This document shows, in pieces, positions 5,140 through 60,927 of a stretch of 64,000 bases of DNA. Where the stretch lies: the NCBI GenBank assembly GCA_016187565.1, contig JACPJR010000010.1, positions 68,596 through 132,595 on the forward strand, in the 5' to 3' direction. Made by a program: the position numbers and the translations under genes. This stretch comes from Candidatus Woesearchaeota archaeon. GTDB taxonomy: Archaea > Nanobdellota > Nanobdellia > Woesearchaeales > JACPJR01. Under the pieces are notes generated by a model that saw only the letters and a list, made by a program, of their open reading frames with translations, had not been told where the DNA came from and searched no databases. Each line of letters starts with the position of its first letter. Position 1 is the stretch's first letter.

Positions 5140-5275
5140 TTTTGGCGTTTCTCTTGAATTATGCAAACAAGATTCTGAAAACTTTAAGAATTTTCTGAGG
5201 GAGTACCTTTAAAGTAGTAACCTTGAGAAACATTTAAATACGTCCTGTTGATCCGTAAAACAAGGAGGTAATACT

Positions 5276-5590: not shown

Positions 5591-5630
5591 ATTTCACAAT
5601 CTTTATAACTAATGTTCCTATTCTTGGTGT

Positions 5631-6272: not shown

Positions 6273-6317
6273 GATTTAGTCGTGAAATTTATAAAGCCCG
6301 TTCTGTTTATTCCTTTT

Positions 6318-8543: not shown

Positions 8544-8598
8544 CTTATTGGCAATTTTGCCATAAGTCTTATATATTCTAAAACCTTTCTCCGCTCTA

Positions 8599-29614: not shown

Positions 29615-29779
29615 GGAGCATCATGAGTCGTGTTGAGATCTCTTCTTTATACTCGAAATTTCTCTTTATCGAATCTCTTTATCTTAGGAGGGGTTGCCTT
29701 AATAAAGGTATCGCCCAAATTTATGACAAACAAACCTTTTTATAGAGGTTTTCCTTTCTTTCCCGAGGATAAGCAACGT

Positions 29780-30466
29780 ATGGACACAAAAATCTCTTCG
29801 GGAACTGAAGTTTTTGATACCTTTCTTCAAGGGGGCTATGATCGGGATGTCATTACCACGATCTATGGTCCGGGTGGAGTAGGAAAAACCTGTCTCTGTA
29901 CTCTTTGTAGCATTGCGGTTATTAACCGTGGTAAGAAAGTAATATATATTGACACTGAGGGGGGATTCTCTTTGGCGAGACTACAACAACTTACCCCCCA
30001 CTATGCCACTGTTCTTAACCATATCCTTTTTCTTAAGCCAAGTCATTTCGAAGAACAGAAGCGTATCATTGAGAAGCTCAGAACAATTGCCACTGAATCA
30101 ATCGGTCTCATTGTTGTCGATACAATTGGGATGTTGTACCGTTTAGAGTTTACTAAAGACGAGGCTGTTTTTGATCTTAACCGAGAGCTTGGAAAACAAC
30201 TTGTCTGCTTGGCTGATATTGCACGGAAGCGAAACATCCCTGTTCTTGTTGCAAATCAAGTTTACTCAGCTGTGGCTGAGGCAAATGGAGTTCGGATGGT
30301 TGGTGGCGATATTCTTCTGTATGGAAGTAAGTGTTTAATTGAATTACAGAAAGAACAAAAAAATCTAAGGAAAGCAATCTTAAAAAAACATCGAAGCCTT
30401 CCTGAGCAAGAGATGTGTTTTCACATTGTTCAAGAGGGAATAGAACGAGCGATAAGGCAAGGATGA
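29780..30466 (+). CDS. radB: RadB-like RecA-superfamily recombination/repair ATPase
   Basis: The N-terminus ISSGTEVFDTFLQGGYDRDVITTIYGPGGVGKT is a Walker A motif in RadB-like context. About 229 aa from ATG 29780. There is no N-terminal HhH domain, which fits RadB rather than RadA. Confidence 0.65.
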   Translation: MDTKISSGTEVFDTFLQGGYDRDVITTIYGPGGVGKTCLCTLCSIAVINRGKKVIYIDTEGGFSLARLQQLTPHYATVLNHILFLKPSHFEEQKRIIEKLRTIATESIGLIVVDTIGMLYRLEFTKDEAVFDLNRELGKQLVCLADIARKRNIPVLVANQVYSAVAEANGVRMVGGDILLYGSKCLIELQKEQKNLRKAILKKHRSLPEQEMCFHIVQEGIERAIRQG

Positions 30467-42411: not shown

Positions 42412-45400
42412 TTAGCTAAAGCTTGGCATTTCTTTGGTGCTGAAGTCTTCATAATAATACATGACGCGTGCAACATGGGTACCTACTTCCTTTACTTTAT
42501 TCTTACGCATGGAATCATCCCATGCTTTTGTTTTACCACTAGAGGTAGTGAAGGTTCCGCTATAGCCAGGAAACTGAAGCAAAAATTCTGGTGTAATCTC
42601 ATGGTAGACTCGATCCCAGGTCGGATCTGCTTCACGTGTTTCAAGAATTGCCGTGGTAATAACTTTTTCACCAATATTGTAGGCAGCTACTGCAAATTTA
42701 TCCTGGTCTTTGTAGCCTACGTAACTCTTTCGCAATTTTGCAAGATAATTAACGGTTGCCTGGATGCTTCGATGGGGTACTGCTCGATTGTCTCGTCCCT
42801 TGACAAGCTCACATTGCTCATCGCAAGGCTCGCATGCTCCTCCACAACCCCTACTACTATCGTCACTCCTTGCACAGAGAAGATACGGTGCTTTTTGATA
42901 TTCACATGCAGTACTATAACAGAACTGTCCTAAGCCATAACAGCCTGTTGGCGAGCCTGCTTTGTAATTAAAGGCGGATTCCTGCGCAATTAGCCCAGCG
43001 ACTAAATCAGCACCTTTTTTTTCACTGGCATAACTTCCATCTTGAGAGACATAATCAAGGATGAGGTCGTAGTACACTCTATTGTCAGCAGTAGGATCTT
43101 GCGTTGTTATTGCTCGTTCCCACATACTCCCAGAGGCTGGAATGCCAATGGTTGCTTTTTCGGTGTCATAGAGCTCGGCATCAGGAACATCATGGGCAAC
43201 AATACTGGCAGAGGATTCTACTTCATAATCATAGCTAAGCGAAACATCAATAATTTCGCTGTTTAAATTATTCTGGTTTGCTAAAGCAGGTTGTCCTTGG
43301 ACTTCCAGCGTACAGTAATCTAATGATTTCTGTTTCCCGTATGCTATCTCTTCGAGACTTTTCTGGCTATACCGTTGCAATGATTCTTTCTTCATAGGGT
43401 AGGTGCATGTTTTTTGTTGGCAGATTTTGCTTGCTGGATCTAAGAGCTGGCAGTTTGTCGCTGGTACAAGCCATGATGGGATGGTAACACTGCCTGAGGT
43501 AAGGGCAAGAAGCTTTCCATTCGGAACCATATTCTCCACAGCAATCTTGAGCTTTACCAAGGTACTGTTTTTTACACCAACGACTACCCGTGGATCAGGA
43601 ACAACAATGAGCTTGATAAAGCCAGGATCTGATTTTGATTCTACCTTTCCTTTTTTGTAATCATTTTCAATAACTCCGGGAAATAATTGTTGGTATTTGT
43701 AAACCTCAGCAGCAACAAGATCCTCTTCTGTTTGATGCCGGGTAATACGTTTGTTGTACTCTTCTTCAGCGGTATTAAATTCAGGATCAGTTGTAAAACG
43801 TGTTTTCCACTCATCCAAGGCAGTTTGCTCAATAAAATAAAGCACGTATTTACTCTCCACCTTGAGTTGTCCGTCAGTCATGCGTGCATTGAAGGTAAGT
43901 TTATTAGCCCCATTTTCGAGACCAAGAGTTTGTTTCGGAAAGGTACAAATAACTACGGTGTTCTCCTTAGTTGCTGGTGGATTAGTGAATCCTTTTGGTA
44001 CGGAGACCTGCCATTCGGTGGGGTCGGCAAAAGGAGTATTTTCAGTATAGATATCCTCAACCTTACAACCAAAGCTGAAGAGCACATCTTGCGTAACGCT
44101 CACGACCGGATGGAAATCAACAAACACCGGATCTCCCTGGTAGACATCTATCGAGTAGCGAGGTGCAATAATGTCGACGGTAACTGCTTCTTCTTTTGTG
44201 GTGTCAATACCTCCGCTCAGTAACGGCTCTTGGCTTTTATTTTCCTTAGGCGGTTTGCCAAAGTTTTCGCATGCAGTGGCGTCTGCAGAAAAAAGTCCGC
44301 CAATACAGGAAACAGTGCTGCTCCAGAACAAACCAAGCTGGCTCTTGCTTACGGTTCCTTGGGCAATGAGCTGTTGTTGTTCATCAGGAAGATCAACATT
44401 TCCCATCCAGCCTTGGAATGCGCCTTGGAATCCCGGAGTAAAGAGCAAGAACACGACATAAGCAAACATATAGGTCGCCCAGATTTTTGTGGAGGGATTT
44501 TCCTTGTCCTTGAGCACCGTATCCCGGTAGAGGGCATCTATGATGATGTACCATGCCCAGAGCCAGGGGAATGCATAAATGGGTGCAATGAATATATTGG
44601 CTTCAATGCCCTTGACAAGGTTACTCAAGAGGCTTTGAATGTAAAACGTTGATAAGAGAAATCCCACAATGATAAAGGGTATTGATTTGAAGTCTCGTTG
44701 GTAGAAATAAAAAAACAAAAGCAAGGCAAAGATGAGATTGATCACCGGGCTGTATAGAAAAATAGTTACGTTTAGAAGATGAACCACCAGTGCTATGACC
44801 ACAAATAACCCAAAGGAACGAACAGCCCCGGTAATACCACTCTTCGCCAATCCAAAGCCACCTTTAATCCCTCCCCATGCTGTTTTTCCCCTTCCCTTCC
44901 AATTTTCTTTTTTTTCGGTTTTTTCCTTGTTCTCTTCATCACTTCTTTCTTCGTCCTTTTTTTTGATTTCGTCTTCAACATGCTGTTGTCTTGTGAGAAG
45001 CTCAATTTCCTTGAGTTTATCTTCTGGATTCGTTGAATTTCGTAATGCTTCTCGCTGTTCTTGAATCAAGGCAAGTTGCTGTTGTAATAGGCTCTTTTCT
45101 TGCTCTTCCTCTTGTTTATTTCTTTGGAACGCATCTTTAATCATACTACCCATACCAGCAAATGCCATTCTTTTATCACTGAAACTGCTTTCTGCAGATG
45201 CAGCGGTTTTAAGGAGATGGCCAAAGGCTTGTATCGAGAGATGCTTTTGTCGCGCATATTCTACCTTCTCCTGAGCATAGGCTCTCGATCTTTCTGCTAC
45301 TGCTCGGGCAGCGAATTTTCCTGTAGCATAGGCAGCCTTTCCCACATCTCGCGCACCATAATAACCCATGCCGGTTTCATGCATTCGCTGGGCTGCAGCA

Positions 45401-45906
45401 ACATCCCCTCCAAGGTGAGTCGCAAGCCTTCGCTGAATCTCAAGACCGTTTTTTATCTGTTTTGCTTTCCACTGTTTATACTCTTCAAGAATTTGGCCGA
45501 GAACACGCTGAAGTTCCTCATGACTCGTTTCTTCAGGAAGTGCGTTTTCAACTGCTCTGACGATCTCCCGTACATCAGCTTCAGGGATTTGGTGATCTGT
45601 GGTAATGACTTCGGAAAGCCCGACGATCAGCTCGCTTTTATTGACGGTAACTTTGCTTGATGGTGGAGACTCTTGCGCCCTCGCCTCTGCTGCCATTGCT
45701 CTTGCTATTCCTCGGGAATCTTCGGCAGAAAGAGTTCCTCCCTGTGCAGCTCTTCTGAGATCTGCATCAAATGCCGCATGGTCGTCTAACTTTGCTCGTG
45801 CCCTTGCGGTGAGTTCTGTAGTGTTATCATCACCTAAAACCCTTCTCTTGGTAACAACGTTGGGGTCATCCATCGTACGCTCTTTTTTCTTAGAGTTATG
45901 CTGCAC
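42412..45906 (-). CDS. Giant (1164 aa) membrane protein: N-terminal cytoplasmic coiled-coil/charged region, multi-TM segment, large extracytoplasmic region ending in a lytic-transglycosylase (SLT/lysozyme-like) domain
   Basis: The C-terminus LVAGLIAQESAFNYKAGSPTGCYGLGQF matches the SLT E-S-x-F-N...A-x-S...G-x-x-G-L-x-Q catalytic motif. The central segment has about 6 TM helices. The N-terminal 330 aa is rich in A/E/K/R and locally GC-rich. Confidence 0.6.
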   Translation of the reverse strand: MQHNSKKKERTMDDPNVVTKRRVLGDDNTTELTARARAKLDDHAAFDADLRRAAQGGTLSAEDSRGIARAMAAEARAQESPPSSKVTVNKSELIVGLSEVITTDHQIPEADVREIVRAVENALPEETSHEELQRVLGQILEEYKQWKAKQIKNGLEIQRRLATHLGGDVAAAQRMHETGMGYYGARDVGKAAYATGKFAARAVAERSRAYAQEKVEYARQKHLSIQAFGHLLKTAASAESSFSDKRMAFAGMGSMIKDAFQRNKQEEEQEKSLLQQQLALIQEQREALRNSTNPEDKLKEIELLTRQQHVEDEIKKKDEERSDEENKEKTEKKENWKGRGKTAWGGIKGGFGLAKSGITGAVRSFGLFVVIALVVHLLNVTIFLYSPVINLIFALLLFFYFYQRDFKSIPFIIVGFLLSTFYIQSLLSNLVKGIEANIFIAPIYAFPWLWAWYIIIDALYRDTVLKDKENPSTKIWATYMFAYVVFLLFTPGFQGAFQGWMGNVDLPDEQQQLIAQGTVSKSQLGLFWSSTVSCIGGLFSADATACENFGKPPKENKSQEPLLSGGIDTTKEEAVTVDIIAPRYSIDVYQGDPVFVDFHPVVSVTQDVLFSFGCKVEDIYTENTPFADPTEWQVSVPKGFTNPPATKENTVVICTFPKQTLGLENGANKLTFNARMTDGQLKVESKYVLYFIEQTALDEWKTRFTTDPEFNTAEEEYNKRITRHQTEEDLVAAEVYKYQQLFPGVIENDYKKGKVESKSDPGFIKLIVVPDPRVVVGVKNSTLVKLKIAVENMVPNGKLLALTSGSVTIPSWLVPATNCQLLDPASKICQQKTCTYPMKKESLQRYSQKSLEEIAYGKQKSLDYCTLEVQGQPALANQNNLNSEIIDVSLSYDYEVESSASIVAHDVPDAELYDTEKATIGIPASGSMWERAITTQDPTADNRVYYDLILDYVSQDGSYASEKKGADLVAGLIAQESAFNYKAGSPTGCYGLGQFCYSTACEYQKAPYLLCARSDDSSRGCGGACEPCDEQCELVKGRDNRAVPHRSIQATVNYLAKLRKSYVGYKDQDKFAVAAYNIGEKVITTAILETREADPTWDRVYHEITPEFLLQFPGYSGTFTTSSGKTKAWDDSMRKNKVKEVGTHVARVMYYYEDFSTKEMPSFS

Positions 45907-48809: not shown

Positions 48810-51800
48810 ATGGAACTCACACACAAAAAAAGGGGTTGGACCAGAGAAACTTCTCAAAGATTTAACGGGATTGTACGGCTATCTTTCTTGGTGACGATAT
48901 TTTTAATATTTTCTTCACTTTTCTTTATCTTTTCGATGCCTTCGGTTAAGGCAGCATCATGTTTTAGCGAAGATAGTTGTTATGATGGATGTTCTGGGTA
49001 TAGTTTGAACGACTGTTACTTTGATGCTGACCACGATTGTCAGATAGGATCCTCTGATAATTGCAAGGATTGCTCTTGTAGTTGTGGAGGCTACCCTAAT
49101 ACAGGAAGCTGTGCTACTGAAGATGTAGTTTTTGGTCCGACATATTATTCGTGCGGGGATAGTTTTGATAACGATGGTGATGGAGATGAAGACTGTGCAG
49201 ACGACGACTGTACAGACAAAGAATGTGGCGGGGGAAATGTCTGTTTTGAAGGATCCTGTGTAGGTGGGCTTGGCCTCGTGTGTACATGGTACAATGGTGT
49301 TACTCCTCTTGCGGATTGCAATGGAGTGAATTGGTGTAACACAACTTACACGCTCACTGACCCCTTTCAATTCATGTTTCCATTTTTCAATACTACCCCA
49401 TCTGCGCCAGTTCCTTCATGTATTATTAGTGCATCAGGAAGAGCTGATAATTTGCAGGGTATTTACATGAATGTTACCCTTAGTGGGGATTGTACTGGAG
49501 ATAACTGTCCTACTGAAGGAGATCTGACTGAACCATGGTGGGAACCCTTTCCCCCATCCCTTACTGCACGAACTCATACGTATGATTTGAGTGATGAAGA
49601 TGGTGTACCAGAACATACAAAACCATTTGATTGTTCTCTTCCTGCCTCGGTAAATGTTACTGAACAACCTGGCTATTTTACTAATCCGAATTGTTGTGGT
49701 GATGGTACGAACGTTTCTGATGCCCTTGCTGATCAAGGTATGATTGCGAATATTTCGAATATTCCTATCTCTCTTTGTGTTCGTCAAGATGTTGATCAGA
49801 ATGCGCTTCAGGATCAAGATACGTATGTAGGGGGTACAGGATGTCCTTATCCATTAGGCAGAAATCCTGGCATTGAGACGCAAGGTCCATGGTTATGGGA
49901 GCAAGCATCGGCGCTACAAAACCTGTGGAAGATCTATACAATAAATCTTAATGAATCTTGCTGGCAGATTCCCAAACCGCAGGGGGCATTTGACCGTCCT
50001 GTTTATGATGTTATAGGATGGGGTGCTACAAATAATCCTCAATGGATTGCATGCGATCCTTTTGGAGCATTTAATCTGAGCAAGAGTCAGCGTGAAGGAC
50101 AGGCTCCGGGTTTAGATTTGGGAAATGCAAATTCAGGAATTACCGTAACACCACCTCCTGATCTGCCGGAATCTGGAGGGGGTAATGGGGGTGTTGTCCC
50201 CGATGCTGGATTTTTTGAGGATCTTGGTATCCATATACAATTCCCTAAAAAAACATACGATGAGGACAAAAGTGCATGGATTTCCTGTCTTCCTGACGCA
50301 GGATCTGGAAGGAATCTTACACGAATTGTTTGTGAAGGCAGTGGTTTTGAAGGTGATGCTATCCAAGCAAACAGTTCCTTCTTTACGCATAATGAAACCA
50401 GTCAAGGAACGGGAACTTTCCATCGAGATGAGCTGTTGAATAACAAAGAATTTAGCAATTTACCAATATATTTTAATGGTGACTTACAAAAGGGATATCA
50501 TAATCTTACCCTCCAGACAAACGGAACAAATAGTAGGGCCTATGTTTTTGCAAGTCAATATCTTGTATTAAGCGATACTACGGAAGACGAGCCTGTTGGG
50601 TCTGATACTGATAGGGTCATCTGCTACGATGAAGGTAATCGTGGATCCTGGGCAGTGTGTTGCGGTTACTCTTATGCAGATTGTCCAACAGAAAATAATG
50701 GGTTATGGGATGTGAATGCTAACCCTAATCCTAAAGTTAAGCGATCCGGTGAGGTTCTGGGGTCTGTTATTGATTATTATAACTCTGATGATCCGTCAGC
50801 AAATTACGTCTTGAAGTTATGGATTGCTACGGCAAGAATAGACCAAGAGTCTGGGTTTATCTATGGACTCATAAATGATGTTGCTCACTCGTTCAACAAC
50901 AATCCTAATGATGATTATATGGATGCGCCTCTTCGCATTACTAACTGGAAAAATTATTCTTTCCTTGAGTTTGATATTGCTTTTACAACCACTGATCTAT
51001 GGAACATTACTATTTTTGATAGTGCTGCTTATCCTATTAGTGATGACATTTTAACTCAAGAATCACAACTTAATCTCCTGCAATTTAATATCTCTTATCC
51101 ATCAAAAGCCCCTCTTTTTAATCGTAGAATCATTGACTACTCTACTGATGGGAATGAGCTCTATGAATGGCACCATATTAAAATTCCACTTCCACCATCA
51201 CTTAAGCAAGAGGACATCTCCCTTATTATGTTTGTGGGTGATAGAGAGGCAATCAAGAATGAAGTACATTATCGTTGGGGAAAGCTTGACGTATTTAATA
51301 TTGGAGGAAATACAGCAGCAGTTTTTGGTTTAGATCGGATGTATCTTTCTCGGGATAGTATGAGTTACACTAATAACACGTTCTGTAGCGGAGGTGGCCG
51401 ATGGATTGATGACCTTGATGAAAGCGCCTTAGCTTGTGATAATACCGCTAAAACTGCATGGACAGGCTCTCAGTGTTGCGGAGATGATCCGCATGAATAC
51501 TATGCAGATCCAGCGGGCTTACATGCCTGTTGGGATGGAAGGATTGTACCACACGACACACGGATTATGCAGGTTGACTACACCGTTACCGGGTCCTCAA
51601 CAGAGTCTCATGCCTGTAAAGGATACAATTCCTTTATCAGTGCGACTGCGGAAGAAGATGCAGAGGAATTTGTGAATGCCTGTTTGTATCCGATGCCGAG
51701 AACAGGTAGAGCTCTTTATACTGTAGCTAATCCTTACACGGAACTTTACAATGTATCTTTCTTTGCCGCAGAAAATGGCGCTCAATATTTTAGTCAAGCA

Positions 51801-54023
51801 ACTACCGACAGTGCATTGGTTGCCGTCCATGATGTGAAAATGCAGGTGCTTGCAAACAATGGAAACTTGTATGGCTGCAATGCCTCTGATTATGTTATTG
51901 ATCATGCTGGCTCCGGAGTTATTCGAGAGAGTATTCCTTGCGAGGTCAAAGGATCATGGTTCTGCTCTGGCACAAACCAATGGTTAAATAAGAGCGATTC
52001 CCGATATACGCTTGGTGAAACTGAAGTCATGAACCTAACAGCCATTCCGTGGGAAATTCCCTGGTATGATCCAACACCTCGTGCAGAATGCTGTGGCAAT
52101 AATGCCTGTTGGAATGGGACAACTTGTCAATCAGAATATACGTACTTTAACCAGACAACAGATGAGGGAAATGATATCTATGTCTGTAAAGCAAGCCAGT
52201 GGTATGGCCCTGTTCCGTTGAAATGGGACTGGGATCATGATCAAGCAAGCTTCTGCTGGAACAATACCCAATGCTTTTGTCCTTACGATGATGATAAGTG
52301 TGATCCTGTCGATGATCGTAACTGTGTTGATGAGAACTATTTTTATCGTGATAACTTTTGCCTGTCAACCGGATGGAACGGCACAGCTTATAATGATAGT
52401 GTCTGGACCACGCGAACTGCCTTATTGGCCACACAACTCTTGACCTTTGTCAACCGTACCAGTTCAGATAATTATACCCTTTTCTGTGATTACTATAACT
52501 TATCAACCAATTATTGGGGCGAAACAGAGATTTGGAATGGCCCTTTTTTAGGTTTAGAAGGACTCAATAATTATTGTGTTCTGAACTACGAGACTGGTGA
52601 AGGTTGGCGTGTCATTGTTGGTGCAAGTTTATGGGAGAGTGAAGGGTATACTGTTCAGAATTTCCTTGACGAGATCCTTCAGGAAACTCCGACAATTTGT
52701 GATAATGTAGGGAGCACAACATTCGAGGAATGTGCTGATGGAGAACTGATCATGGCGTACTGGAATAACCAAACGAAATCTATGCTTTTTGCAGAGGAGG
52801 AATTACATGGATTCTCTTTAGAACCAGGTGATAAGCTTGTGCTCAACGGTGGAAACCTTCTTCAGAACTTTAATCTCTTTTTACAGTTTGTCTTTGCAAA
52901 GATACGGAATACGGCTACGCATCTCTTAGGATTACAGGGAGAAGAGACACAGCATCTTGCGGTTGCTGAAGACTTTGACAGGCTTTACCTCTTCAAAGAA
53001 AATCAGAAGGAAATAAAAGGCATGGTGCGTGAGGATTTGGATGGAAAATATCTGCTCGTATCATATTTCAACGCAACAACCGATATCTGTAAAGCAGTAC
53101 AAGCGTACAACATCTTGAATCAAGGTATGGGTGGAAGTCCTTTTGCCTGTAATGTAAGCGTTTATGAAGATGATAGCTGGTCGTATAATGTTGTTACGAG
53201 ACGTAATAGCAGTCCTGAAGAGTGGTCGTATCTCATTGGTCTGAATGCATGGCCAAGCTTAGGTGCAATGTCTCGTCTTGATGTGGCTGATTTCGGATAT
53301 GTTCCCACCATGGCTTCTATTAACGCTGAAATCATCGAAGGTCAGGCGCTCCTTACCTCGTTTGAGTTTGAAGCCGTTGTTGCTGGAACTGCGCCGGATT
53401 CATATTTGTGGGACTTTGGTGATGCTTCGCAAGGTACGGGAAAGACCATAACCCATAACTATGCAATTGCAGGATCCTACAATGTAACTCTGAATGCTTC
53501 TTATGATGGGCGTATCATTCAGGACAGGATTGTGGTTACAGTTCGTGAGCCTGCATTAGACTGTACGCTCCGAAGCACTGCTTGTAATAACGAAGAGGTC
53601 GGCGTCTTATCACTTTTAGAGCAGACAAATTCGCATATATTTACCTATGATCCGAATAGTGAATACAATATTTGCTGTACACCACCAACCTGTCAGCTTA
53701 AGGTAACAACACCCCCTAGTACTTGTGGATCTCTTGCCTGTATTACTGCTCTTACTCAAATGACTGGTTCAGGGGAAGGCTCTCATGCTGCTCTTTGCGA
53801 CACAGCTGACTTAGATCATGTTTGTATGGATGTTACTAATTGTGGTGCTTATGATTTGAGCTGTAACCAGGAAGATCAGAGTGAAGAAGGTTGGGAAAAT
53901 TGGGGTGCTTGTACAACGGGAAGCTGTGTAGTAACCATTTCATCAGATGGAACTCACCTGTCAGGTTGTGACTACTATCCCTTCCCTGTTTCAGTCTGTT
54001 GTGGACTGAATGATGATAACTGA
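48810..54023 (+). CDS. Giant (1737 aa) secreted Cys-rich surface protein with PKD domain near the C-terminus
   Basis: An N-terminal signal/anchor. About 110 Cys and many N-x-S/T sequons. PKD signature: SYLWDFGDASQGTGKTITHNYAIAGSYNVTLNASY. A C-terminal Cys-rich tail. Confidence 0.7.
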   Translation: MELTHKKRGWTRETSQRFNGIVRLSFLVTIFLIFSSLFFIFSMPSVKAASCFSEDSCYDGCSGYSLNDCYFDADHDCQIGSSDNCKDCSCSCGGYPNTGSCATEDVVFGPTYYSCGDSFDNDGDGDEDCADDDCTDKECGGGNVCFEGSCVGGLGLVCTWYNGVTPLADCNGVNWCNTTYTLTDPFQFMFPFFNTTPSAPVPSCIISASGRADNLQGIYMNVTLSGDCTGDNCPTEGDLTEPWWEPFPPSLTARTHTYDLSDEDGVPEHTKPFDCSLPASVNVTEQPGYFTNPNCCGDGTNVSDALADQGMIANISNIPISLCVRQDVDQNALQDQDTYVGGTGCPYPLGRNPGIETQGPWLWEQASALQNLWKIYTINLNESCWQIPKPQGAFDRPVYDVIGWGATNNPQWIACDPFGAFNLSKSQREGQAPGLDLGNANSGITVTPPPDLPESGGGNGGVVPDAGFFEDLGIHIQFPKKTYDEDKSAWISCLPDAGSGRNLTRIVCEGSGFEGDAIQANSSFFTHNETSQGTGTFHRDELLNNKEFSNLPIYFNGDLQKGYHNLTLQTNGTNSRAYVFASQYLVLSDTTEDEPVGSDTDRVICYDEGNRGSWAVCCGYSYADCPTENNGLWDVNANPNPKVKRSGEVLGSVIDYYNSDDPSANYVLKLWIATARIDQESGFIYGLINDVAHSFNNNPNDDYMDAPLRITNWKNYSFLEFDIAFTTTDLWNITIFDSAAYPISDDILTQESQLNLLQFNISYPSKAPLFNRRIIDYSTDGNELYEWHHIKIPLPPSLKQEDISLIMFVGDREAIKNEVHYRWGKLDVFNIGGNTAAVFGLDRMYLSRDSMSYTNNTFCSGGGRWIDDLDESALACDNTAKTAWTGSQCCGDDPHEYYADPAGLHACWDGRIVPHDTRIMQVDYTVTGSSTESHACKGYNSFISATAEEDAEEFVNACLYPMPRTGRALYTVANPYTELYNVSFFAAENGAQYFSQATTDSALVAVHDVKMQVLANNGNLYGCNASDYVIDHAGSGVIRESIPCEVKGSWFCSGTNQWLNKSDSRYTLGETEVMNLTAIPWEIPWYDPTPRAECCGNNACWNGTTCQSEYTYFNQTTDEGNDIYVCKASQWYGPVPLKWDWDHDQASFCWNNTQCFCPYDDDKCDPVDDRNCVDENYFYRDNFCLSTGWNGTAYNDSVWTTRTALLATQLLTFVNRTSSDNYTLFCDYYNLSTNYWGETEIWNGPFLGLEGLNNYCVLNYETGEGWRVIVGASLWESEGYTVQNFLDEILQETPTICDNVGSTTFEECADGELIMAYWNNQTKSMLFAEEELHGFSLEPGDKLVLNGGNLLQNFNLFLQFVFAKIRNTATHLLGLQGEETQHLAVAEDFDRLYLFKENQKEIKGMVREDLDGKYLLVSYFNATTDICKAVQAYNILNQGMGGSPFACNVSVYEDDSWSYNVVTRRNSSPEEWSYLIGLNAWPSLGAMSRLDVADFGYVPTMASINAEIIEGQALLTSFEFEAVVAGTAPDSYLWDFGDASQGTGKTITHNYAIAGSYNVTLNASYDGRIIQDRIVVTVREPALDCTLRSTACNNEEVGVLSLLEQTNSHIFTYDPNSEYNICCTPPTCQLKVTTPPSTCGSLACITALTQMTGSGEGSHAALCDTADLDHVCMDVTNCGAYDLSCNQEDQSEEGWENWGACTTGSCVVTISSDGTHLSGCDYYPFPVSVCCGLNDDN

Positions 54024-54075
54024 TCTATCAACCAATAACTAAACTAACGGAAAAAAACGCTGTGAGGTGCTGATT

Positions 54076-55068
54076 ATGCAAATAACCATTAATATTGAGA
54101 AAAAGCACGTGTATCTTTTGATTGGAACACTGGTACTCTTAGCAAGTATTGTCCTTGTTGTTGCTACCGGATGGACGTCAGGCACGTCGTTTCATGATAT
54201 TCTTTATGCAAACACTATTCGGGCGAAAGATCAAGGCACAGTAACTGTCAATGATGGTTTGACTGTCGAGAGTGCAGCAAGAGTCAACGATGGTTTGACA
54301 GCGGATGGTCTTACGATAAATCAGAATGCGGCTATTGCTGGAACCCTTACTGTTGGAGGAAGAACAACTATTGGTGGGGTACTCGACGTTGCTACCCTTC
54401 AGCCCGCCTCATCGTTACTTACTGTTTCTTCGGATCTGAAGATTACCGGGGAGTATAATGATGTTCGCTATATCCGTATGGGAAATAAGAATCCTGGAAC
54501 CTATTACTATCTACGTTTTTTAAGTGATGATATAAGTCCGAATTCAGGAGAGGGACATTTTGGTGGAATTATGCACAACGTTAATGATCCAAACTTTGGA
54601 GATGGAAATGATTTTACTATTTTCAGCTATGGCAACAGAGACATCTGGTTGTATCCTTCGGGAGGGAAGGTTGTGGCAAAGGGGAATACTGAGGTGGAAG
54701 GTACTCTTACTACTGGGAAAACTGAGGTGAGAGGTGATCTTACTGTTACTGGGAAAATACAGAGTCTTCATGTTTTTGAGTCTCTGTGTAATGATGGGCA
54801 CAAGGAAAGCGGTGAATGGAATGACGAAGCATGGTGTGGAAGCGAAAACGAGTTACTTACCGAAAGTACTTGTGTGGTTTTTGTTCGTAGCTTTAATCAG
54901 AACGATGATGATACTGACCCTATTAAAGGTGGATGGTGTGAAATTGAACAAAACAGGCTTGTTGGCCATATGTTTACCAGTGGAAGTGATGGTGATAATA
55001 CTGCTGCGAACATGATCTGTGGTGCTCTATGCGGCTCAGCGTTAATCCAACATGGGGAGTTGAGCTAG
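54076..55068 (+). CDS. Secreted beta-repeat protein with N-terminal signal-anchor (hypothetical)
   Basis: A GAGGTG RBS lies 5 nt before ATG 54076. One N-terminal TM helix. There are G/T/N-rich repeats (NDGLTVESAARVNDGLTADGLTINQNAAIAGTLTVGG) and a C-terminal Cys-containing region. Confidence 0.5.
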   Translation: MQITINIEKKHVYLLIGTLVLLASIVLVVATGWTSGTSFHDILYANTIRAKDQGTVTVNDGLTVESAARVNDGLTADGLTINQNAAIAGTLTVGGRTTIGGVLDVATLQPASSLLTVSSDLKITGEYNDVRYIRMGNKNPGTYYYLRFLSDDISPNSGEGHFGGIMHNVNDPNFGDGNDFTIFSYGNRDIWLYPSGGKVVAKGNTEVEGTLTTGKTEVRGDLTVTGKIQSLHVFESLCNDGHKESGEWNDEAWCGSENELLTESTCVVFVRSFNQNDDDTDPIKGGWCEIEQNRLVGHMFTSGSDGDNTAANMICGALCGSALIQHGELS

Positions 55069-55123
55069 TTAAACAGTTTCTTTCGTGTCTGAACAACGCT
55101 TGTTTTAACGAAACTGTTCAGCC

Positions 55124-55153
55124 TGAACGTTCTAACGTTCAGAAATAGCAAAA
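55124..55153. repeat. 30-bp repeat containing the imperfect palindrome GAACGTTCTAACGTTC (second copy 57219-57249)
   Basis: gaacgttctaacgttcagaaatagcaaaaa is present at both sites. In the second copy it directly abuts the end of the 275-bp repeat. In the first copy it lies 220 bp upstream of that repeat. Confidence 0.75.
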
Positions 55154-55375
55154 AGTGAAGCAGGAATAAGGATTTTACAATATGAACAGAGACCGTAATC
55201 TTTTTTGCTGAAACTCCTTGCTGATCATAGTTGATTTGTCACCCTGTCACCAAAGTATACGCCAAGCTGGTTTACCATCTGACTCCAGTCTCTGACTGTC
55301 TGCCGTTTCTCATATGAGTCGATAACTACCAGGTACAGCAGCTTGAACAAATCATCTTCTATTTTTAGAAGCTCA

Positions 55376-55650
55376 AAATAATGGCTCCATGACAATTGGT
55401 GAGACAGTGTCTCACTTTTTTGGTATTTCAGATAAAACAGCCTCATAGATATATCAGATTGCTTTTGCTAAACCCTTTCCCATACATCAGTTTCAAGTCT
55501 TTAGAAAGGTTTTCTAAGAGTGCTGAGAATTAATCAGTGCAGAATAATAATTTTTTCTTTTCATAAACCCCACCGAATAAAGAAACACTTGCACATACTT
55601 ATAAATATTCTGTTTACTGGCGGTGTATGGGAAAGTAATTCTGTAATCCG
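55376..55650. repeat. Direct repeat A (~275 bp) flanking the MNT-HEPN cassette
   Basis: About 97% identical to 56941-57219. The only indel is a 6-bp gcaagg insertion in copy B. Confidence 0.85.
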
Positions 55651-55683
55651 GTGTCGTCAAAAAACCAAAAATTAATTAAAAAT

Positions 55684-55732
55684 ACTCCAAAAACAGAAGC
55701 AATCACTCCAAAAACAGAAGCATTTATAAATG
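55684..55732. promoter_or_regulatory. Tandem 18-bp direct repeat (actccaaaaacagaagca x2, 3-bp spacer) immediately upstream of a TATA-like box (tttataaa) and the MNT gene; putative autoregulatory operator plus promoter
   Basis: Read directly: 55684-55701 and 55705-55722 are identical. tttataaa lies at 55723-55730, ~25 bp before ATG 55755. Confidence 0.4.
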
Positions 55733-55754
55733 AGCTTGTCTAACCATTATCAAA

Positions 55755-56327
55755 ATGAAGCCGGAAGAAAAGGTTTACAAGGCGTATTTTGAAAGTAAGA
55801 AAAGCACCCTTTACTTCAATGAAATAAAGGGGTTGTCAAAACTATCAGACAGCTCTTTAACAAACACGTTAAACAAGCTTACAAAAAACAACACTCTAAC
55901 CCAAGAAAAAACAAAATCAAACACGTTCTATAAAATAAAAGATAAAAAACTGTTTGCTTTAAAATTCTCAGAAATTGCAATACAAAAATTTAATGAGCTA
56001 AATATTGGAGTAAAAACACCGTTGAGAAACTTCTTAAGAGAAATTCCTAAAGAAGTCTATACCATTGTTCTTTTTGGATCTGCCTCAAGAAGAGAAGAAC
56101 AAAAAGAAAGCGATATTGACCTGCTAATAATCTCAAACAAAAAAATAGACTTAACCGAGAATAAAAAAGAGGCAGAAATAACTTCAAAACATCCAATTTC
56201 AATATTCCAAGCAACCATCAGCCAATTTACCGAAAACAAAGACGATATCGTCATTCAGGTAAGAAAAACAGGCTTTCCAATTTACAAAGAACAGAATTTT
56301 TACGAGGTAATGTTAGGTGAATATTGA
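55755..56327 (+). CDS. Minimal nucleotidyltransferase (MNT/MntA-like) with N-terminal wHTH; antitoxin-type partner of a HEPN protein
   Basis: LFGSASRREEQKESDIDLLII matches the GS-x(9-13)-D-x-D Pol-beta nucleotidyltransferase motif. The N-terminal 90 aa is helical and K-rich. Confidence 0.7.
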   Translation: MKPEEKVYKAYFESKKSTLYFNEIKGLSKLSDSSLTNTLNKLTKNNTLTQEKTKSNTFYKIKDKKLFALKFSEIAIQKFNELNIGVKTPLRNFLREIPKEVYTIVLFGSASRREEQKESDIDLLIISNKKIDLTENKKEAEITSKHPISIFQATISQFTENKDDIVIQVRKTGFPIYKEQNFYEVMLGEY

Positions 56328-56817
56328 AAGATTGTTTGATGATAAGAAGTATTTGGAAAATGAACTAAACTTTTTCATAAGAAAAAAGCATATCAAGAGA
56401 ATTCCAGAAAACAAAGAATTAGTAAATTCCCATCTCAAAAAAGCAAGGCATAATATAGAATTTTACAAATTAAACAAAGAGCATCATAAATTCAATGACT
56501 GGCTTATTGTAACTTTATACTATGCACTTTATCATTCAGCGTTGGCATTAATAACAAACAAAAGATTTTCCTCAAAAAATCATTATGCAACAATTCTCAT
56601 CCTCGTAAAAGAATACCCTCTAACAAAAGATGAAGCAAAATTGTTAAATGAATTATCCATAAATAAAGATGATGCAGAGCTTTACACTCAATTAAAAGAT
56701 GACAGGCACGATGCAAGTTATGCAACAAATATCAAATTCAACCAAAAAACAATAGATAACTATGAAAATAAAGTCCTAGATTTCATCAACAAAACAGAAG
56801 AATTGATACAAAGATGA
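56317..56817 (+). CDS. HEPN-domain protein (HepT-like toxin partner of the MNT)
   Basis: It overlaps the MNT stop, with a GTG start at 56317. The helical domain (WLIVTLYYALYHSALALITNK ... HYATI) fits the HEPN family pattern. The MNT-HEPN gene order is conserved. Confidence 0.65.
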   Translation: MNIERLFDDKKYLENELNFFIRKKHIKRIPENKELVNSHLKKARHNIEFYKLNKEHHKFNDWLIVTLYYALYHSALALITNKRFSSKNHYATILILVKEYPLTKDEAKLLNELSINKDDAELYTQLKDDRHDASYATNIKFNQKTIDNYENKVLDFINKTEELIQR

Positions 56818-56940
56818 AAAAACTCATTGCCGATAATGAAAGTTTCCATAAACTGCTTGTTGATGGGGTGAGTATTCCAATCTCAAAAGGCGGAGAAGAA
56901 AGGCACATTATAGTCAATCTATTTGATTATAATAACCTCG

Positions 56941-57219
56941 AAAATAATGGATCCATGACAATTGGTGAGACAGTGTCTCACTTTTTTGGTATTTCAGATA
57001 AAACAGCCTCATAGATATATCAGATTGCTTTTGCTAAACCCTTTCCCATACATCAGTTTCAAGTCTTTAGAAAGGTTTTCTAAGAGTGCTGAGAATTAAT
57101 CAGTGCAGAATAATAATTTTTTCTTTTCATAAACCCCACCGAATAAAGAAACACTTGCACATACTTATAAATATTCTGTTTACTGGCGGTGTATGGGAGC
57201 AAGGTAATTCTGTAATCCG
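56941..57219. repeat. Direct repeat B (~279 bp) flanking the MNT-HEPN cassette
   Basis: Matches 55376-55650. It is followed directly by the 30-bp palindromic repeat. Confidence 0.85.
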
Positions 57220-57435
57220 AACGTTCTAACGTTCAGAAATAGCAAAAAATGAACGTTTCGATCGAAACCTTTATAACTAAGAATAGGCTTTAACGGTTTG
57301 TGAACAGGGAAAGATTTCGATAATAGTTTCCCTCTACATTGTACATGGATGCCGCAGCAGTTAACGAGTACCTTGTTGATTTTCAGAAGAAGGGACTGAG
57401 AGGAGCAAAGGAAAAAAGATTCTCTCTGTTCCCCT

Positions 57436-60400
57436 TTGGAAATGGCTACTGACAAAAAAGTAACTTATTGGAAAAGAGGGTCCATGAAAGCACAAATAAC
57501 GATGTTTATGATCCTTGGTATTGTTATTCTGGCAGCCTTTGGTTTTGTCTTTTACGTGAATGAAATCATGTCTCAGATACGCTTGCAGCATAAGGTCGAC
57601 CAAATCATGGAAGATGTATTGGAGACAACAGCGCTTGATTATTATGTGACGATTTGTCTGGAGTCTGCAACTCAAGAAGCATTGGCAATTGCAAGCTTGC
57701 AGGGTGGGCGAATCTATGAAACACAAATCCCAGGAACAAAGCAGTTTCAAGGTCCACCTTCCTTGGCGTATGGTTCTTTTGTCCTTCCCTTGAACATGTC
57801 TCAAACAGTTTTTGGTGAGAACGCAACGCTGATCAATGTGAGTTATGGTATTGCCCGCCCTAATCTCACCGTTAGTCAATGGCATCCCGACGTGCCATAC
57901 TATCCTTATTTGCAAGACAGTTATACATTCCTCGTTGAGGATCCTCAAGCTTATGATACCCGATACAAAGATACCTTGGGTAACTTTAGACGACCAGAAC
58001 ATATCCTGCCAGCACTCTGTGACCGCTATGGTATGAATGCACTCCAGTCCTTCAATTATAGCGCTAATGGAACGAATTATACAGTTTGGGTTCGTTGCCG
58101 CGAGAGCTGGTTTGATACCGTCAATACCAGCGACCATTCCTCTATTCAGGAACAACTCCAATTTGCCATTGCGAATAAAACGCGAGCATGTGTTGACTTC
58201 CCTACCTTGTCAGCCTATTTTGGCCTAAACATCACTGAGGGAAACATTACCAGCAAGATTCTTTTCTCTGATGCTTATGTAGATTCTTACCTTGATTATC
58301 CCTTAGTGTTTTCAGTTGCAGGTCGTGAGCCCATCACAAAATTCTTGACTTTTGCCACTCGTCAGAATATTCGTTTTATGTATGTTTATGACACTGCTAT
58401 GCAGATCATTGAAGCAGATACCAACAATGTGTTCTTTGATATGGTTACTGATGCCTATTCATTAACTCGAGGAGGAAAACCTTATCTCCAAGAAGGCATG
58501 ACGGTTTTTAAAGAGGTTCAGCCCTGTAAGCGCTATGATCTCTGCCCACAAACAGGAAATTATTCTGACATCTATGTCATCCAGGATAACAACTCGCTTA
58601 TTGATGGAAGGCCTTTGCGCTTTCAGTTTGCCATTGAGAACAGAAAACCCGCGCTTAATTATATCACCTTTAGCAATTACTCAGGAGTGTATGATCTCAT
58701 TCTTCGCGAAAATGAAACTATTGTTATTGATCCCTATGCCTATGATCCTGATGAGGATTTTCACTCCCCGCTGTTTTTAGACCTCTTCAATAGGACATAT
58801 ATGCTTGATTATTATGTTTATCGGGGCTGGAAGGAAGACTATGATGAATGGTTTGATTTCTCCTGCTGCATTCCTCCGATTGGATCAGGAAGTGTTAATT
58901 GTACTGATGACACTCTTGCATCTCAGTGTGTTGTTCGTAATCTCAATGCACCACAACAATGGTCTACCTCTTCACTCTTCCAACAGACCAGCCGTTCTGC
59001 AAATTACAATCTTACCTTGAATGATACCGGTCCTCATGAGGTGAGCGTCTATGTCTTTGATGAAGAGAATGGGTCTTTTGATTATCAAGACATAACCATC
59101 TTGGTGATGGACACTGCACAGGCACGACCAAATGGGTCAAATGAGTATGATGACATCCCTGATAATTATGCCTCGATCGAAGATCGCTATATTCTCGATG
59201 CTACACGCTCCCTTGCCGTCTATAGTCCAACAACATGGTTCATGTGGTTTGATGAACAAGAGGCAACGTACCTCTATCAGGGTCCTGAGCCATTGGTTAC
59301 CATTCCTCAAGGAGCTACGATTCTGAATATGTCCTCGTATCCCTTTACTCGTCCTCTTCCAGGTATTGACACCAGTCCTCTTAATCACACTATTAATCTC
59401 TCGGTAAGCTCCTTGGGAAGCCCCTTTCATTCTGCCATCATGAATGTTTCGGTGTTTTATTGTTTACCTCATCGAACTGAAACAGCATCATTTCCGTACC
59501 ATAATCTTTCCCTTGCTTCCTATGTTGGGAGAAATTACAGCTCTTTAGATGACCCATTCCAAGCAAATCATGCCTGTTGTAGTGATGATGCGGTTATGTA
59601 TGGAAGTTATACGTTGGGAAACAGTTGCTTTACCTACGAGGAATACGGAAGTCATTATTCCTTTAACAATGATCTTTTCCTTGCCTCATCGTTGCCCGTG
59701 TCACCGTCGACGTATACGGTAACTTATTATGACTTGGCCGGTGGCCAAATTGCACAGGGGCCTATCACCCTCCCGATCATGCTGCTATACCCTTACGACA
59801 ATGACCTCTATCAACGATCATTTGAACGCAGCTGTGATGGTACTCGCGGTAATGTTTGTCAGGGAGCTGCAGACGAAAAACGGGAAAGTATTGCAGAATG
59901 TCCTGACAAACTAGAACCATGGTATGATGAACGTTGTTCTGGACCAGAAGAAGCCTATCGAAACACGGCAAGTGCAACGCCCTTAGCATGTACACAGTAT
60001 ATTACAGGAAAAACCTTTGAAAGCATCTTTCAAAATGGTCAGGGAAACTGCAGTCATGATCGTGTGTGTACGACTGGCTCTGGTGCGGGAAAGTACCATT
60101 ACAACACCCCTTCAGGTCGATTTTCTTGTGTTGGTCAATGTGGGAGCTCGGGAAACTGTGATTATGGAACAGCATGTTACTGCGATCAGAGTTGTGGAGC
60201 GAACTCGTACTGCAATCAGAAACAGCCAGGATATCGTATTGGCAGGTGTGACCAGGTAGGGCAGGTTTATTTTGAAGATAAATGCACGAATGATTGCCTG
60301 TTACAGGATACCACGCCTGTGTTTAAATGTACGGGCAGTTGTTCCTGCACTGAACCACAATGCGACGGTCATGTTGCAGGGGATGCGTTAGGGGTCTGTA

Positions 60401-60927
60401 ATCGTGCAGGAACAACCTGGTTTGAGGATCAGTGTACGAGTAATGCAGGAGCTACGGACATAACCACTATTTGTAAACTCAATGCAGCAACCTGTGATGA
60501 CAACAATGTTGCTGTTCGCGGTGTACGGATTGCTGATACTTTTTGCAATGGCCAAGCTCCGGGAGCGGTGTTTGGTTCAGGATCAAGGCTTGAGCAGGGA
60601 TGTGAATTTGATTGTACTGGCGTGAGTTGTACACCTTATGCCTTTGATCCATTAACCAAAACCTGTCATGACCGGTCAACTGCTACAGGTCTTCAGCATT
60701 GTGATGATGCCTTTGGTTGGGATCCGGAGAGCAATCGTTGCCTCTCCTGTACTAATAATAGAGAATCTGGTGGGGATGCCAGAAATCTTGGTACGTGTGA
60801 GGCAGATGCTGGAGAAGGGAACTGCAATGCAGATTCGCTTTGTGATGAGCTGTCTCCTGGGAATTCGTGTGGAACAGGCATGACCTGCCAGACAGACTGC
60901 CGTTGCCGGAGTGGGGCAGGAAAATAA
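57436..60927 (+). CDS. Giant (1163 aa) secreted Cys-rich surface protein
   Basis: An N-terminal TM/signal (MKAQITMFMILGIVILAAFGFVFYV). Dozens of N-x-S/T sequons. The C-terminal third is built of Cys-rich repeats (C-x-G-x-C, CDQSCG, CTGSCSC). Confidence 0.7.
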   Translation: MEMATDKKVTYWKRGSMKAQITMFMILGIVILAAFGFVFYVNEIMSQIRLQHKVDQIMEDVLETTALDYYVTICLESATQEALAIASLQGGRIYETQIPGTKQFQGPPSLAYGSFVLPLNMSQTVFGENATLINVSYGIARPNLTVSQWHPDVPYYPYLQDSYTFLVEDPQAYDTRYKDTLGNFRRPEHILPALCDRYGMNALQSFNYSANGTNYTVWVRCRESWFDTVNTSDHSSIQEQLQFAIANKTRACVDFPTLSAYFGLNITEGNITSKILFSDAYVDSYLDYPLVFSVAGREPITKFLTFATRQNIRFMYVYDTAMQIIEADTNNVFFDMVTDAYSLTRGGKPYLQEGMTVFKEVQPCKRYDLCPQTGNYSDIYVIQDNNSLIDGRPLRFQFAIENRKPALNYITFSNYSGVYDLILRENETIVIDPYAYDPDEDFHSPLFLDLFNRTYMLDYYVYRGWKEDYDEWFDFSCCIPPIGSGSVNCTDDTLASQCVVRNLNAPQQWSTSSLFQQTSRSANYNLTLNDTGPHEVSVYVFDEENGSFDYQDITILVMDTAQARPNGSNEYDDIPDNYASIEDRYILDATRSLAVYSPTTWFMWFDEQEATYLYQGPEPLVTIPQGATILNMSSYPFTRPLPGIDTSPLNHTINLSVSSLGSPFHSAIMNVSVFYCLPHRTETASFPYHNLSLASYVGRNYSSLDDPFQANHACCSDDAVMYGSYTLGNSCFTYEEYGSHYSFNNDLFLASSLPVSPSTYTVTYYDLAGGQIAQGPITLPIMLLYPYDNDLYQRSFERSCDGTRGNVCQGAADEKRESIAECPDKLEPWYDERCSGPEEAYRNTASATPLACTQYITGKTFESIFQNGQGNCSHDRVCTTGSGAGKYHYNTPSGRFSCVGQCGSSGNCDYGTACYCDQSCGANSYCNQKQPGYRIGRCDQVGQVYFEDKCTNDCLLQDTTPVFKCTGSCSCTEPQCDGHVAGDALGVCNRAGTTWFEDQCTSNAGATDITTICKLNAATCDDNNVAVRGVRIADTFCNGQAPGAVFGSGSRLEQGCEFDCTGVSCTPYAFDPLTKTCHDRSTATGLQHCDDAFGWDPESNRCLSCTNNRESGGDARNLGTCEADAGEGNCNADSLCDELSPGNSCGTGMTCQTDCRCRSGAGK

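Follow-up and report, generated by a model that had tools for sequence, protein, structure and literature searches.

A repeat-bracketed MNT-HEPN module in a Woesearchaeota genome: probable homology-anchored insertion with long target duplication

Introduction

How does a small gene pair of the toxin-antitoxin (TA) type come to lie between two long, nearly identical direct repeats when neither an integrase nor a transposase gene is found nearby? This question is raised by a locus in a 64-kb stretch of contig JACPJR010000010.1 (assembly GCA_016187565.1) from Candidatus Woesearchaeota archaeon. This stretch is called the window hereafter, and all position numbers refer to it. Overlapping genes for a minimal nucleotidyltransferase (MNT) and a HEPN protein are placed there between two copies of a repeat, R1, with a pair of shorter repeats, R2, further outside. 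DPANN archaea have tiny genomes with few recognisable mobile elements, and their acquisition of accessory genes is poorly understood. A first-pass annotation of the window had proposed a circular cassette, integrated or excised by site-specific recombination. Based on the evaluation of the repeats, the junctions and related loci in other genomes and metagenomes, we consider it probable that the cassette arrived by homology-anchored insertion, through integration of a circle or homology-facilitated illegitimate recombination, which amounts to an insertion with long target duplication.

Results

Nested repeats around the module

Both repeat pairs as well as an 18-bp tandem site in front of the MNT gene were found as annotated in the first pass, with coordinates agreeing within 1 nt. 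Lengths of proteins are given in amino acids (aa), and wHTH denotes a winged helix-turn-helix. From left to right the locus consists of the following features:

55125-55159, no strand: R2 copy A, containing GAACGTTCTAACGTTC; 57 nt past the stop of the gene for a 333-aa protein
55160-55374, minus strand: U1, single-copy 3' part of a decayed DUF1016_N (YhcG-like) pseudogene
55375-55650, minus strand: R1 copy A, upstream region and frameshifted 5' part of the DUF1016 pseudogene, with a 135-nt internal deletion at 55527
55651-55683, no strand: 33-nt spacer between R1 and the module, without homology to other loci
55684-55701 and 55705-55722, plus strand: two predicted operator sites with a 21-nt period, directly adjoining the TATA box
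55723-55731, plus strand: TATA box TTTATAAAT, 32 nt upstream of the ATG, its position conserved in the alignment of upstream regions
55755-56327, plus strand: wHTH-MNT gene, 190 aa, winged helix (residues 1-61) and minimal nucleotidyltransferase
56317-56817, plus strand: HEPN gene, 166 aa, GTG start, AF0298-like HEPN-T type
56814-56940, plus strand: hsdR remnant (hsdR'), 127 nt, its ATG overlapping the HEPN stop, cut by R1'
56941-57219, minus strand: R1 copy B (R1'), the DUF1016 5' part and upstream region once more, likewise lacking the 135 nt
57219-57253, no strand: R2 copy B (R2'), abutting R1', about 180 nt before the gene for a 1163-aa protein

The R1 copies (276 and 279 nt), occurring twice in the window, agree at 274 of 279 positions (98.2%, against ~97% in the first pass). 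They are told apart by one single-nucleotide polymorphism (SNP) 11 nt from the left end and by a 3-nt insertion/deletion (indel) and one further SNP ~20 nt from the right end, providing copy-specific markers on the left (C at 55385, A at 56951) and on the right (AAAG, AGCAAGG); the 246-nt core (55386-55632) is identical between the copies. The R2 copies share 34 of 35 positions including the first 30, and this exact 30-nt sequence occurs twice in the window with none expected by chance (100 shuffles). R2 shows internal dyad symmetry and its two positions mark the outer borders of a low-GC region, the GC content dropping from 0.42-0.45 in the flanks to 0.29-0.31 in the cassette. As a proof of recent transfer the low GC content was rejected, since cassette GC follows host GC across loci (r=0.79, slope 0.6) and is therefore only weak evidence in this respect.

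R2 abuts R1' with a 1-nt overlap but precedes R1 by 215 nt, an arrangement that the first-pass annotation had taken for a circularly permuted order (R2...R1 [TA] R1R2). Across the locus the order is R2, U1, R1, 33 nt, module, hsdR', R1', R2'. With the segment from the 33-nt spacer through R1' taken out, R2-U1-R1-R2' is left, that is, a pseudogene within a 35-nt repeat pair. The layout is nested, R2[U1 R1{TA}R1']R2', with R2 as the outer pair, and the proposed permutation does not exist. Correct was the view that a simple tandem duplication does not account for the arrangement.

No further R2 copy was found in the window at up to 3 mismatches or in the JGI metagenome and viral collections. Among the fetched loci, R2 was present outside the window only in Logan contigs L069-L071, which match this locus at 100% identity. 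For lack of copies elsewhere, R2 was rejected as a dispersed genomic motif or element end. The pair may go back to an earlier, similar event in which 35 nt of target were duplicated around DUF1016, or it may mark what is left of a former island border. Directly 3' of R2 copy B and upstream of the gene for the 1163-aa protein, a short palindromic stretch, ATGAACGTTTCGATC / GATCGAAACCTTTAT, at 57249-57274 shares an AACGTT core with R2. Known RNA families within the repeats were rejected because Rfam gave no match in 54900-57600. Likewise, tRNA genes as targets of bracketing repeats were rejected, as none is present in the window and the repeats of nine bracketed loci do not coincide with any.

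R1 as part of a decayed DUF1016 gene

R1 and U1, read together on the minus strand, form a frameshifted DUF1016_N (YhcG-type) pseudogene. A 73-aa open reading frame (ORF) at 55225-55446 on this strand matches PF17761 DUF1016_N (E=9e-7), and reading in all three frames revealed the upstream parts of the domain in the other two. Judged by its sequence, R1 is the putative promoter and 5' part of a dead gene; as a gene fragment, it is not an att site.

The history of this gene is reflected in a variant from the population. Logan contig L070 (run SRR12113390) is identical to the window from 52913 to 55527, continues with 135 extra nt and then follows the window again up to 55632. The 135 nt restore the DUF1016 reading frame (MKRKNYY...GKGFSKSNLIYL). 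Their deletion is common to both R1 copies of the window, so that the duplication is younger than the deletion. Furthermore, L070 runs past the point where the left junction of R1' would merge, without branch or break, which suggests a haplotype lacking that junction; Logan contigs are simplified graphs, and L070 ends exactly where the two copies diverge. L070 thereby documents polymorphism of the locus in the population, the absence of which had been named in the first pass as part of the outcome speaking against a mobile cassette. A search for an empty site via orthologues of the 333-aa gene was abandoned, as this gene has no homologue but itself and its Logan contigs end inside R1.

The pseudogene segment 55349-55527 is 91% identical on nucleotide level to an intact DUF1016_N gene (L073:6183-6359) and 85% identical to L072:939-1114, from other Woesearchaeota and adjoining restriction-modification (RM) genes. 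This homology stops abruptly at 55349, 26 nt from the R1 border, by which the pseudogene itself looks mosaic. Both loci were rejected as models of the donor or of the empty site since they belong to different organisms, are located near RM genes and lack R2.

A truncated hsdR gene at the right junction

To the right of the module, the HEPN stop is overlapped (ATGA) by the start of an ORF (56814-57014) that matches the Pfam domain HSDR_N (E=3e-5). The remnant is 77% (aa) and 80% (nt) identical to residues 95-138 of a 1055-aa HsdR from locus L029, where HsdR follows the same MNT-HEPN pair and hsdS precedes it. Codons 1-5 are joined to codons ~99-138 in the remnant by a deletion between two AAACTCAT stretches, and the remnant itself is cut by R1' at 56940/56941, the joint falling within AAAATAA(TG), which hsdR and R1 have in common (8-nt microhomology). 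The joint between hsdR' and R1' thus reads as a microhomology junction of the type that illegitimate recombination would leave. Logan contigs with an identical cassette (L001, L002) always end at 56849, 92 nt before R1', probably because an intact hsdR in the same samples has the k-mers from 56820 onward in common with them; this intact gene could represent the donor context.

The conserved module and its distribution

By blastn, homology to more than 60 loci starts at 55683/55684, in most close loci at the first base of the first operator, and ends at 56800-56828, while the flanks are unrelated. These sharp ends define the conserved unit as operator-operator-TATA-MNT-HEPN, lying off the ends of R1. 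The module (55684-56817, 1.14 kb) accordingly comprises two operators, the TATA box, the wHTH-MNT gene and the AF0298-like HEPN gene. It is present in more than 100 Woesearchaeota and Nanoarchaeota loci of differing neighbourhoods, and the gene pair was found in 59 species genomes, 80 JGI metagenome contigs and several other contigs, again in unrelated surroundings. Homologues of the MNT protein at 77-90% identity number more than 500, and those bearing a name are assigned to Candidatus Woesearchaeota. No relative of the protein was found in IMG/VR, for which reason a virus was rejected as the vehicle. A third operator copy, AAAACAGAAG at 56791 in the HEPN 3' end, was discarded as a terminal repeat since it represents KTEE codons that are the same in homologues with different operators.

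In at least 27 of 51 loci, the next gene begins with an ATG that overlaps the stop codon of HEPN. This gene is hsdR in the window and in L018, L019, L029, L034, L047, L052 and L151, a DUF2779-like nuclease gene in L021, L103 and L126, a Cas4-like nuclease gene in L017 and L101, and a gene for a Rossmann-fold protein in L023. HsdR and the Cas4-like and DUF2779-like downstream partners all belong to the PD-(D/E)XK nucleases, which hints at a functional link with the module. In type I restriction operons the module is often placed precisely at the border of hsdS and hsdR, as in L029:3653-9224 and likewise in L003, L011, L018, L019, L044 and L052 (upstream ends reading ...RVPVEVR*).

Bracketing recurs with different repeats in other loci

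A locus was counted as bracketed if one repeat copy ended at most 450 nt before the operator and the other started at most 450 nt after the HEPN stop, with random pseudo-cassettes in the same loci serving as controls. Bracketing was recorded for 8 of 46 genome loci (controls 56 of 6466) and for 16 of 47 loci in an independent metagenome set (controls 47 of 5112), some of the latter duplicating cases of the first set. This corresponds to 17-34% of the module loci at a control rate of ~0.9%. The repeats, obtained by self-comparison of the loci, are 45-230 nt long, 76-97% identical and different in every locus. The most frequent geometry (L017, L021, L023, L075, L101, L103, L126, L151) has as its downstream copy the 5' end of the gene that overlaps the HEPN stop with its ATG; the upstream copy is a truncated fragment of this same 5' end, terminating 0-25 nt before the operator.

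L021, L023, L026, L017, L126 and L103 each combine a truncated copy with one that lies within a full gene, allowing the comparison of their coding sequences. The differences amount to 13 synonymous versus 2 non-synonymous in L026 and 9 versus 2 in L021. The translated copies of L126 are identical over 40 aligned codons at 8.3% nucleotide difference, and those of L017 include a TCA/AGT switch of serine codons. Pooled over fragment and full-gene copies, the ratio of non-synonymous to synonymous differences (pN/pS) is 0.08; decay of the fragment in place should yield a value near 0.5. The synonymous bias indicates that divergence took place while both copies were functional genes, before they came to lie side by side, and consequently one of them probably came in with the cassette.

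In L017:4853-9043, three different MNT-HEPN pairs stand in tandem (5001-6060, 6167-7151, 7267-8396), and behind each of them the first ~70 nt of a Cas4-like PD-(D/E)XK gene are repeated; with one more copy upstream this makes four, of which the last alone belongs to a full gene (8393-9043). This array looks like serial capture at one gene start. L075 contains a second operator after an hsdR fragment. Another kind of repeated spacer in a TA-rich island was seen in L046, where five copies of a ~100-nt promoter module, each composed of tandem CACTGGACA-CACTGGACA plus TTTATAAAT, are spread over 10 kb (850-985, 2610-2700, 3760-3935, 6680-6910, 8460-8590) between four different MNT-HEPN pairs and other small genes.

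The MNT protein and its predicted operator

The MNT and HEPN ORFs are co-directional with MNT upstream and overlap by 11 nt (56317-56327), confirming the classic arrangement noted in the first pass; the same pair is found in all related loci. The MNT protein matches Pfam NTP_transf_2 (PF01909, 37.7 bits, cut-off 21) and PF18765 (36.7 bits, cut-off 26.9) as well as PADLOC PDC-M05A (E=3e-17). Its GSxS...DID motif conforms to the nucleotidyltransferase pattern hG[GS]x9-13Dh[DE], with G108, S109, D120 and D122 invariant in 30 homologues. The NCBIfam MntA equivalog NF047752 scored 28.7 bits against a cut-off of 60, covering part of the domain only. In the AF2 model, residues 1-61 adopt a canonical winged helix (pLDDT 82-95). 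Foldseek related this modelled N-terminal domain to wHTH regulators (probability 1.0) and the C-terminal domain to MntA (6m6u, 7bxo) and HI0073.

The 18-nt site ACTCCAAAAACAGAAGCA is present at 55684-55701 and 55705-55722, and two sites at exactly this 21-nt period were found in 54 of 57 non-redundant loci. According to the 57-locus alignment, the sites end 1-3 nt before the TATA box, which in turn precedes the start codon by 29-32 nt. With 32 nt in the window, the leader would be very short or missing. Three classes of sites can be distinguished, tracking one residue in the motif LS-x-SSL: D occurs with a CTCC-N7-GAAG site (32 of 32 loci), H with ACCA-N5-TGGT (15 of 16) and N with GCCA-N5-TGGC (7 of 10, the remaining three keeping the TGGC right half), the clades behind these counts not being independent samples. 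Two proteins that are distant overall (L042, L068) keep both the D and the CTCC-type site. The covarying residue is placed at the start of helix 3 of the modelled wHTH. The assignment of the tandem sites as a predicted operator bound by the wHTH of MNT is strongly supported by this comparison, so that the operator-like repeat described in the first pass gained in substance. MNT is presumed to be both antitoxin and autorepressor. Family knowledge and the covariation suggest that its wHTH would bind the two sites touching the TATA box and repress its own operon, and by analogy to the type VII system HepT/MntA its MNT domain would neutralise the HEPN RNase by nucleotidylylation.

The HEPN protein

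Assignment of the second protein to HEPN started from a weak Pfam score (16.7 bits, cut-off 22) and a PDB match to AF0298 (2hsb, E=0.035), on which a profile search with the HEPN alignment gave no gain. Across 40 homologues, R130, S134, Y135 and H89 (within SKNH) are invariant. The RNase motif Rx4-6H is not present in its usual form, R130 being invariant but followed five residues on by an invariant Tyr, not His. For HEPN-T proteins of the AF0298 type, retention of the Arg, absence of the Rx4-6H His and an alternative conserved His upstream have been described (Anantharaman et al. 2013, PMC3710099). The four invariant residues match this description and support the assignment despite the weak Pfam score. 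The HEPN protein is presumed to be the toxin. Two loci carry a broken HEPN gene next to an intact MNT gene, through a frameshift resulting in two ORFs (L021:5563-6062) or a ~350-nt internal deletion (L015:2033-2058), the pattern expected if HEPN is the toxic partner.

Surrounding genes

The locus is surrounded by genes for very large cysteine-rich secreted or surface proteins at 48810-54023, 57436-60927 and 42412-45906 (1737, 1163 and 1164 aa), one of which contains an SLT transglycosylase domain. The 333-aa protein (54067-55068) showed no homologue but itself among 5.8 billion proteins, and a weak bactofilin-like repeat match. Further away on the minus strand, a Schlafen/AlbA_2 + HATPase_c_4 + wHTH protein (13168-14547) and an adjoining 316-aa protein with a MazE-like N-terminus (14719-15669) may constitute another defence-type pair.

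Discussion

Homology-anchored insertion and its rivals

For the insertion at this locus we propose the following course of events. A donor segment [R1 - 33 nt - module - hsdR'] would have come from the genome of a very close relative or from elsewhere in the same population, where the module would have stood beside DUF1016 and in front of hsdR. Its entry into a resident 333-R2-U1-R1-R2'-1163 (333 and 1163 denoting the genes of the flanking proteins) would require one homologous crossover in R1 and one illegitimate joint, connecting hsdR codon ~138 to the start of R1 at the AAAATAA(TG) microhomology. In terms of topology, a circularised fragment could have entered by Campbell-type integration, or a linear one by homology-facilitated illegitimate recombination. 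Either would leave a ~1.29-kb segment between R1 and R1', anchored on the left in R1 and joined on the right at the border of hsdR' and R1', and TA addiction would subsequently select against its loss by recombination between the repeats. The insert encodes MNT, HEPN and gene remnants only, no integrase or transposase was detected among 37 ORFs scanned between 11.7 and 61.9 kb, and RadA is encoded at 29630-30466. Overall, the data suggest that the module spreads by ordinary recombination without an integrase of its own. From the first-pass proposal, integration of a circle is retained as a viable route, whereas its site-specific (att) mode found no support.

Several observations weigh against homology-anchored insertion as worded here. 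The R1 copies are 98% identical and carry the same deletion, which demands a donor nearly identical to the recipient or an intragenomic event, and the argument from synonymous bias is inapplicable to these two copies. The geometry of the window also deviates from the commonest one, the duplicated gene being located upstream of the module and divergent instead of co-directional downstream. In most loci the left boundary of the module is sharp within a few nt, for which the model can only invoke selection for an intact promoter and operator, so that a site-directed mechanism is possible. Finally, a continuous empty site 333-R2-U1-R1-R2'-1163 was not recovered; L070, stopping where the two copies diverge, fits all alternatives.

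Site-specific integration or excision of a circular cassette at the palindromic R2 or at R1, by an integrase acting in trans and leaving attL/attR-like junctions, would draw on the near-perfect 35-nt direct repeat R2 with its dyad symmetry at the outer borders of the low-GC region. The integrase could be encoded outside the window, and homology-anchored insertion does not account for the R2 pair in detail. The scan of 37 ORFs, however, revealed no candidate enzyme, and the proposed sites do not behave as att sites: R1 is a piece of the decayed DUF1016 gene, the conserved module ends (55684 and 56817) differ from the repeat ends, and the right junction is a microhomology joint within a truncated hsdR. 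R2 and R1 are absent from all other module-bearing loci, R2 having no match elsewhere in the window, in the fetched loci of other organisms or in the metagenome and viral collections. There is no recurring core at both ends, as the brackets in other genomes consist of unrelated local sequences of variable length, and the order of the repeats is nested. We therefore regard this explanation, and with it the attL/attR-like junctions of the first-pass annotation, as very unlikely.

An internal rearrangement of a decaying defence island (DUF1016 - MNT - HEPN - hsdR ...) located between the two surface-protein genes, without any incoming DNA, has more in its favour, and is nevertheless judged unlikely. 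In this scenario, microhomology deletions would have removed most genes, and R1' would have been formed by replication template switching or by tandem duplication plus deletion. Two clear microhomology deletions do exist (hsdR codons 5 to 99 and the 135 nt of DUF1016), the near-identity of the R1 copies with their common 135-nt deletion is what an intragenomic copy would show, and DUF1016, MNT-HEPN and hsdR co-occur in other genomes (L018, L029). The scenario needs at least two events, the second with a breakpoint exactly at the border of R1 and R2', where homology-anchored insertion needs one crossover and one joint. It leaves the position of R2' directly after R1' unexplained, and the signature of purifying selection between the copies in other loci points to import rather than to copying in situ. 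A still different possibility is that the arrangement stems from the assembly: the chromosome would read 333-R2-U1-R1-R2'-1163, and [R1 - module - hsdR'] would be a separate 1566-bp circle or tandem array, threaded into the contig as a loop via the 246-nt identical core. This core exceeds a short read, Logan contigs break exactly where the shared repeat predicts, both phasings correspond to the same k-mer set, and L070 passes the left junction of R1' without a merge. Against this, a 1.57-kb circle lacking a replication gene would hardly be maintained at chromosomal coverage, and both junctions with the copy-specific SNP and indel were found in 5-6 samples, together with the flank contigs. Moreover, bracketed structures with 76-97% identical copies were assembled in many independent studies, which a collapsed repeat cannot explain. 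An artefact is thus the least probable of the explanations considered here. Homology-anchored insertion remains the reading that we prefer.

Relation to known systems

The closest parallel is found among RM systems. Insertion with long target duplication of RM gene complexes is said to have been noted by Nobusato and co-workers in 2000. For bacterial RM units the phenomenon has been described using the criteria of an insert below 20 kb, no mobility genes and direct repeats above 30 bp, along with a related genome in which the empty site holds one repeat copy, and no archaeal case passed that screen (Furuta, Abe and Kobayashi 2010, PMC2853133). The locus in the window agrees in size and repeats, with an insert of ~1.29 kb, repeats of 276/279 nt and no mobility gene found nearby; as to the empty site, L070 suggests a haplotype without the left junction of R1' but ends where the copies diverge. 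Common to both are a small addiction-type unit without mobility gene, repeats of tens to hundreds of bp made of local sequence specific to each site, a GC content below that of the host and an enrichment of repeat flanking over other genes. They differ in the cargo, which is a TA pair here, though often inside type I RM operons, and in the hosts, which are DPANN archaea. In addition, the copies are here often 8-24% diverged with synonymous bias, pointing to an imported homologous flank, and serial arrays occur (L017, L075).

With respect to mechanism, homology-facilitated illegitimate recombination is reportedly known from naturally transformable bacteria through work of de Vries and Wackernagel in 2002. 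Such or Campbell-type integration shares with the locus one homologous anchor, one microhomology joint and an insert flanked by the anchor duplication. To our knowledge, neither has ever been shown in DPANN archaea. Integron cassettes, which Ghaly and colleagues reportedly described from archaea in 2022, resemble the modules as compact promoter-proximal cassettes with TA cargo, standing in serial arrays with short repeated spacers (L017, L075). Unlike in integrons, no IntI was found here, the spacers are 5' fragments of the downstream gene instead of attC hairpins, and each cassette has its own promoter. The type VII TA system HepT/MntA (HEPN-MNT), reportedly characterised by Yao and colleagues in 2020, has in common with the gene pair the order MNT before HEPN, the overlap, the GSxS...DxD motif and, in the model, a C-terminal domain resembling 6m6u and 7bxo. 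In contrast, the MNT protein of the window contains an N-terminal winged helix, has its own dual operator and stays below the cut-off of the MntA equivalog, and its partner is an AF0298-type HEPN with the alternative conserved His in place of the Rx4-6H His. Searches of the literature turned up neither repeat-bracketed MNT-HEPN cassettes nor arrays of this kind for DPANN archaea.

Implications

A more far-reaching generalisation is put forward only tentatively, as it is more doubtful than not. The MNT-HEPN modules of Woesearchaeota and Nanoarchaeota may be integrase-free mobile cassettes that insert precisely before nuclease start codons (hsdR, Cas4-like, DUF2779-like), placing the HEPN stop over the ATG and duplicating the first 50-150 nt of the target at each insertion. 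If true, the arrays L017 and L075 would consist of different TA pairs separated by gene-5' fragments, resembling an integron-like capture platform that would operate via homologous recombination or via a site-directed mechanism set by the sharp left end of the module.

In respect to regulation, the three-way match of one recognition-helix residue with the operator half-site would represent a DNA-recognition code open to single-residue swaps. With regard to gene acquisition, the bracketing, together with copies that look like once functional genes of foreign origin, would provide direct evidence at the sequence level for small addiction modules moving between these genomes by means of short homologous flanks and without integrases. 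This would extend to archaea and to TA systems a phenomenon known only for bacterial RM genes, and the bracketed loci offer many natural cases for working out its mechanism.

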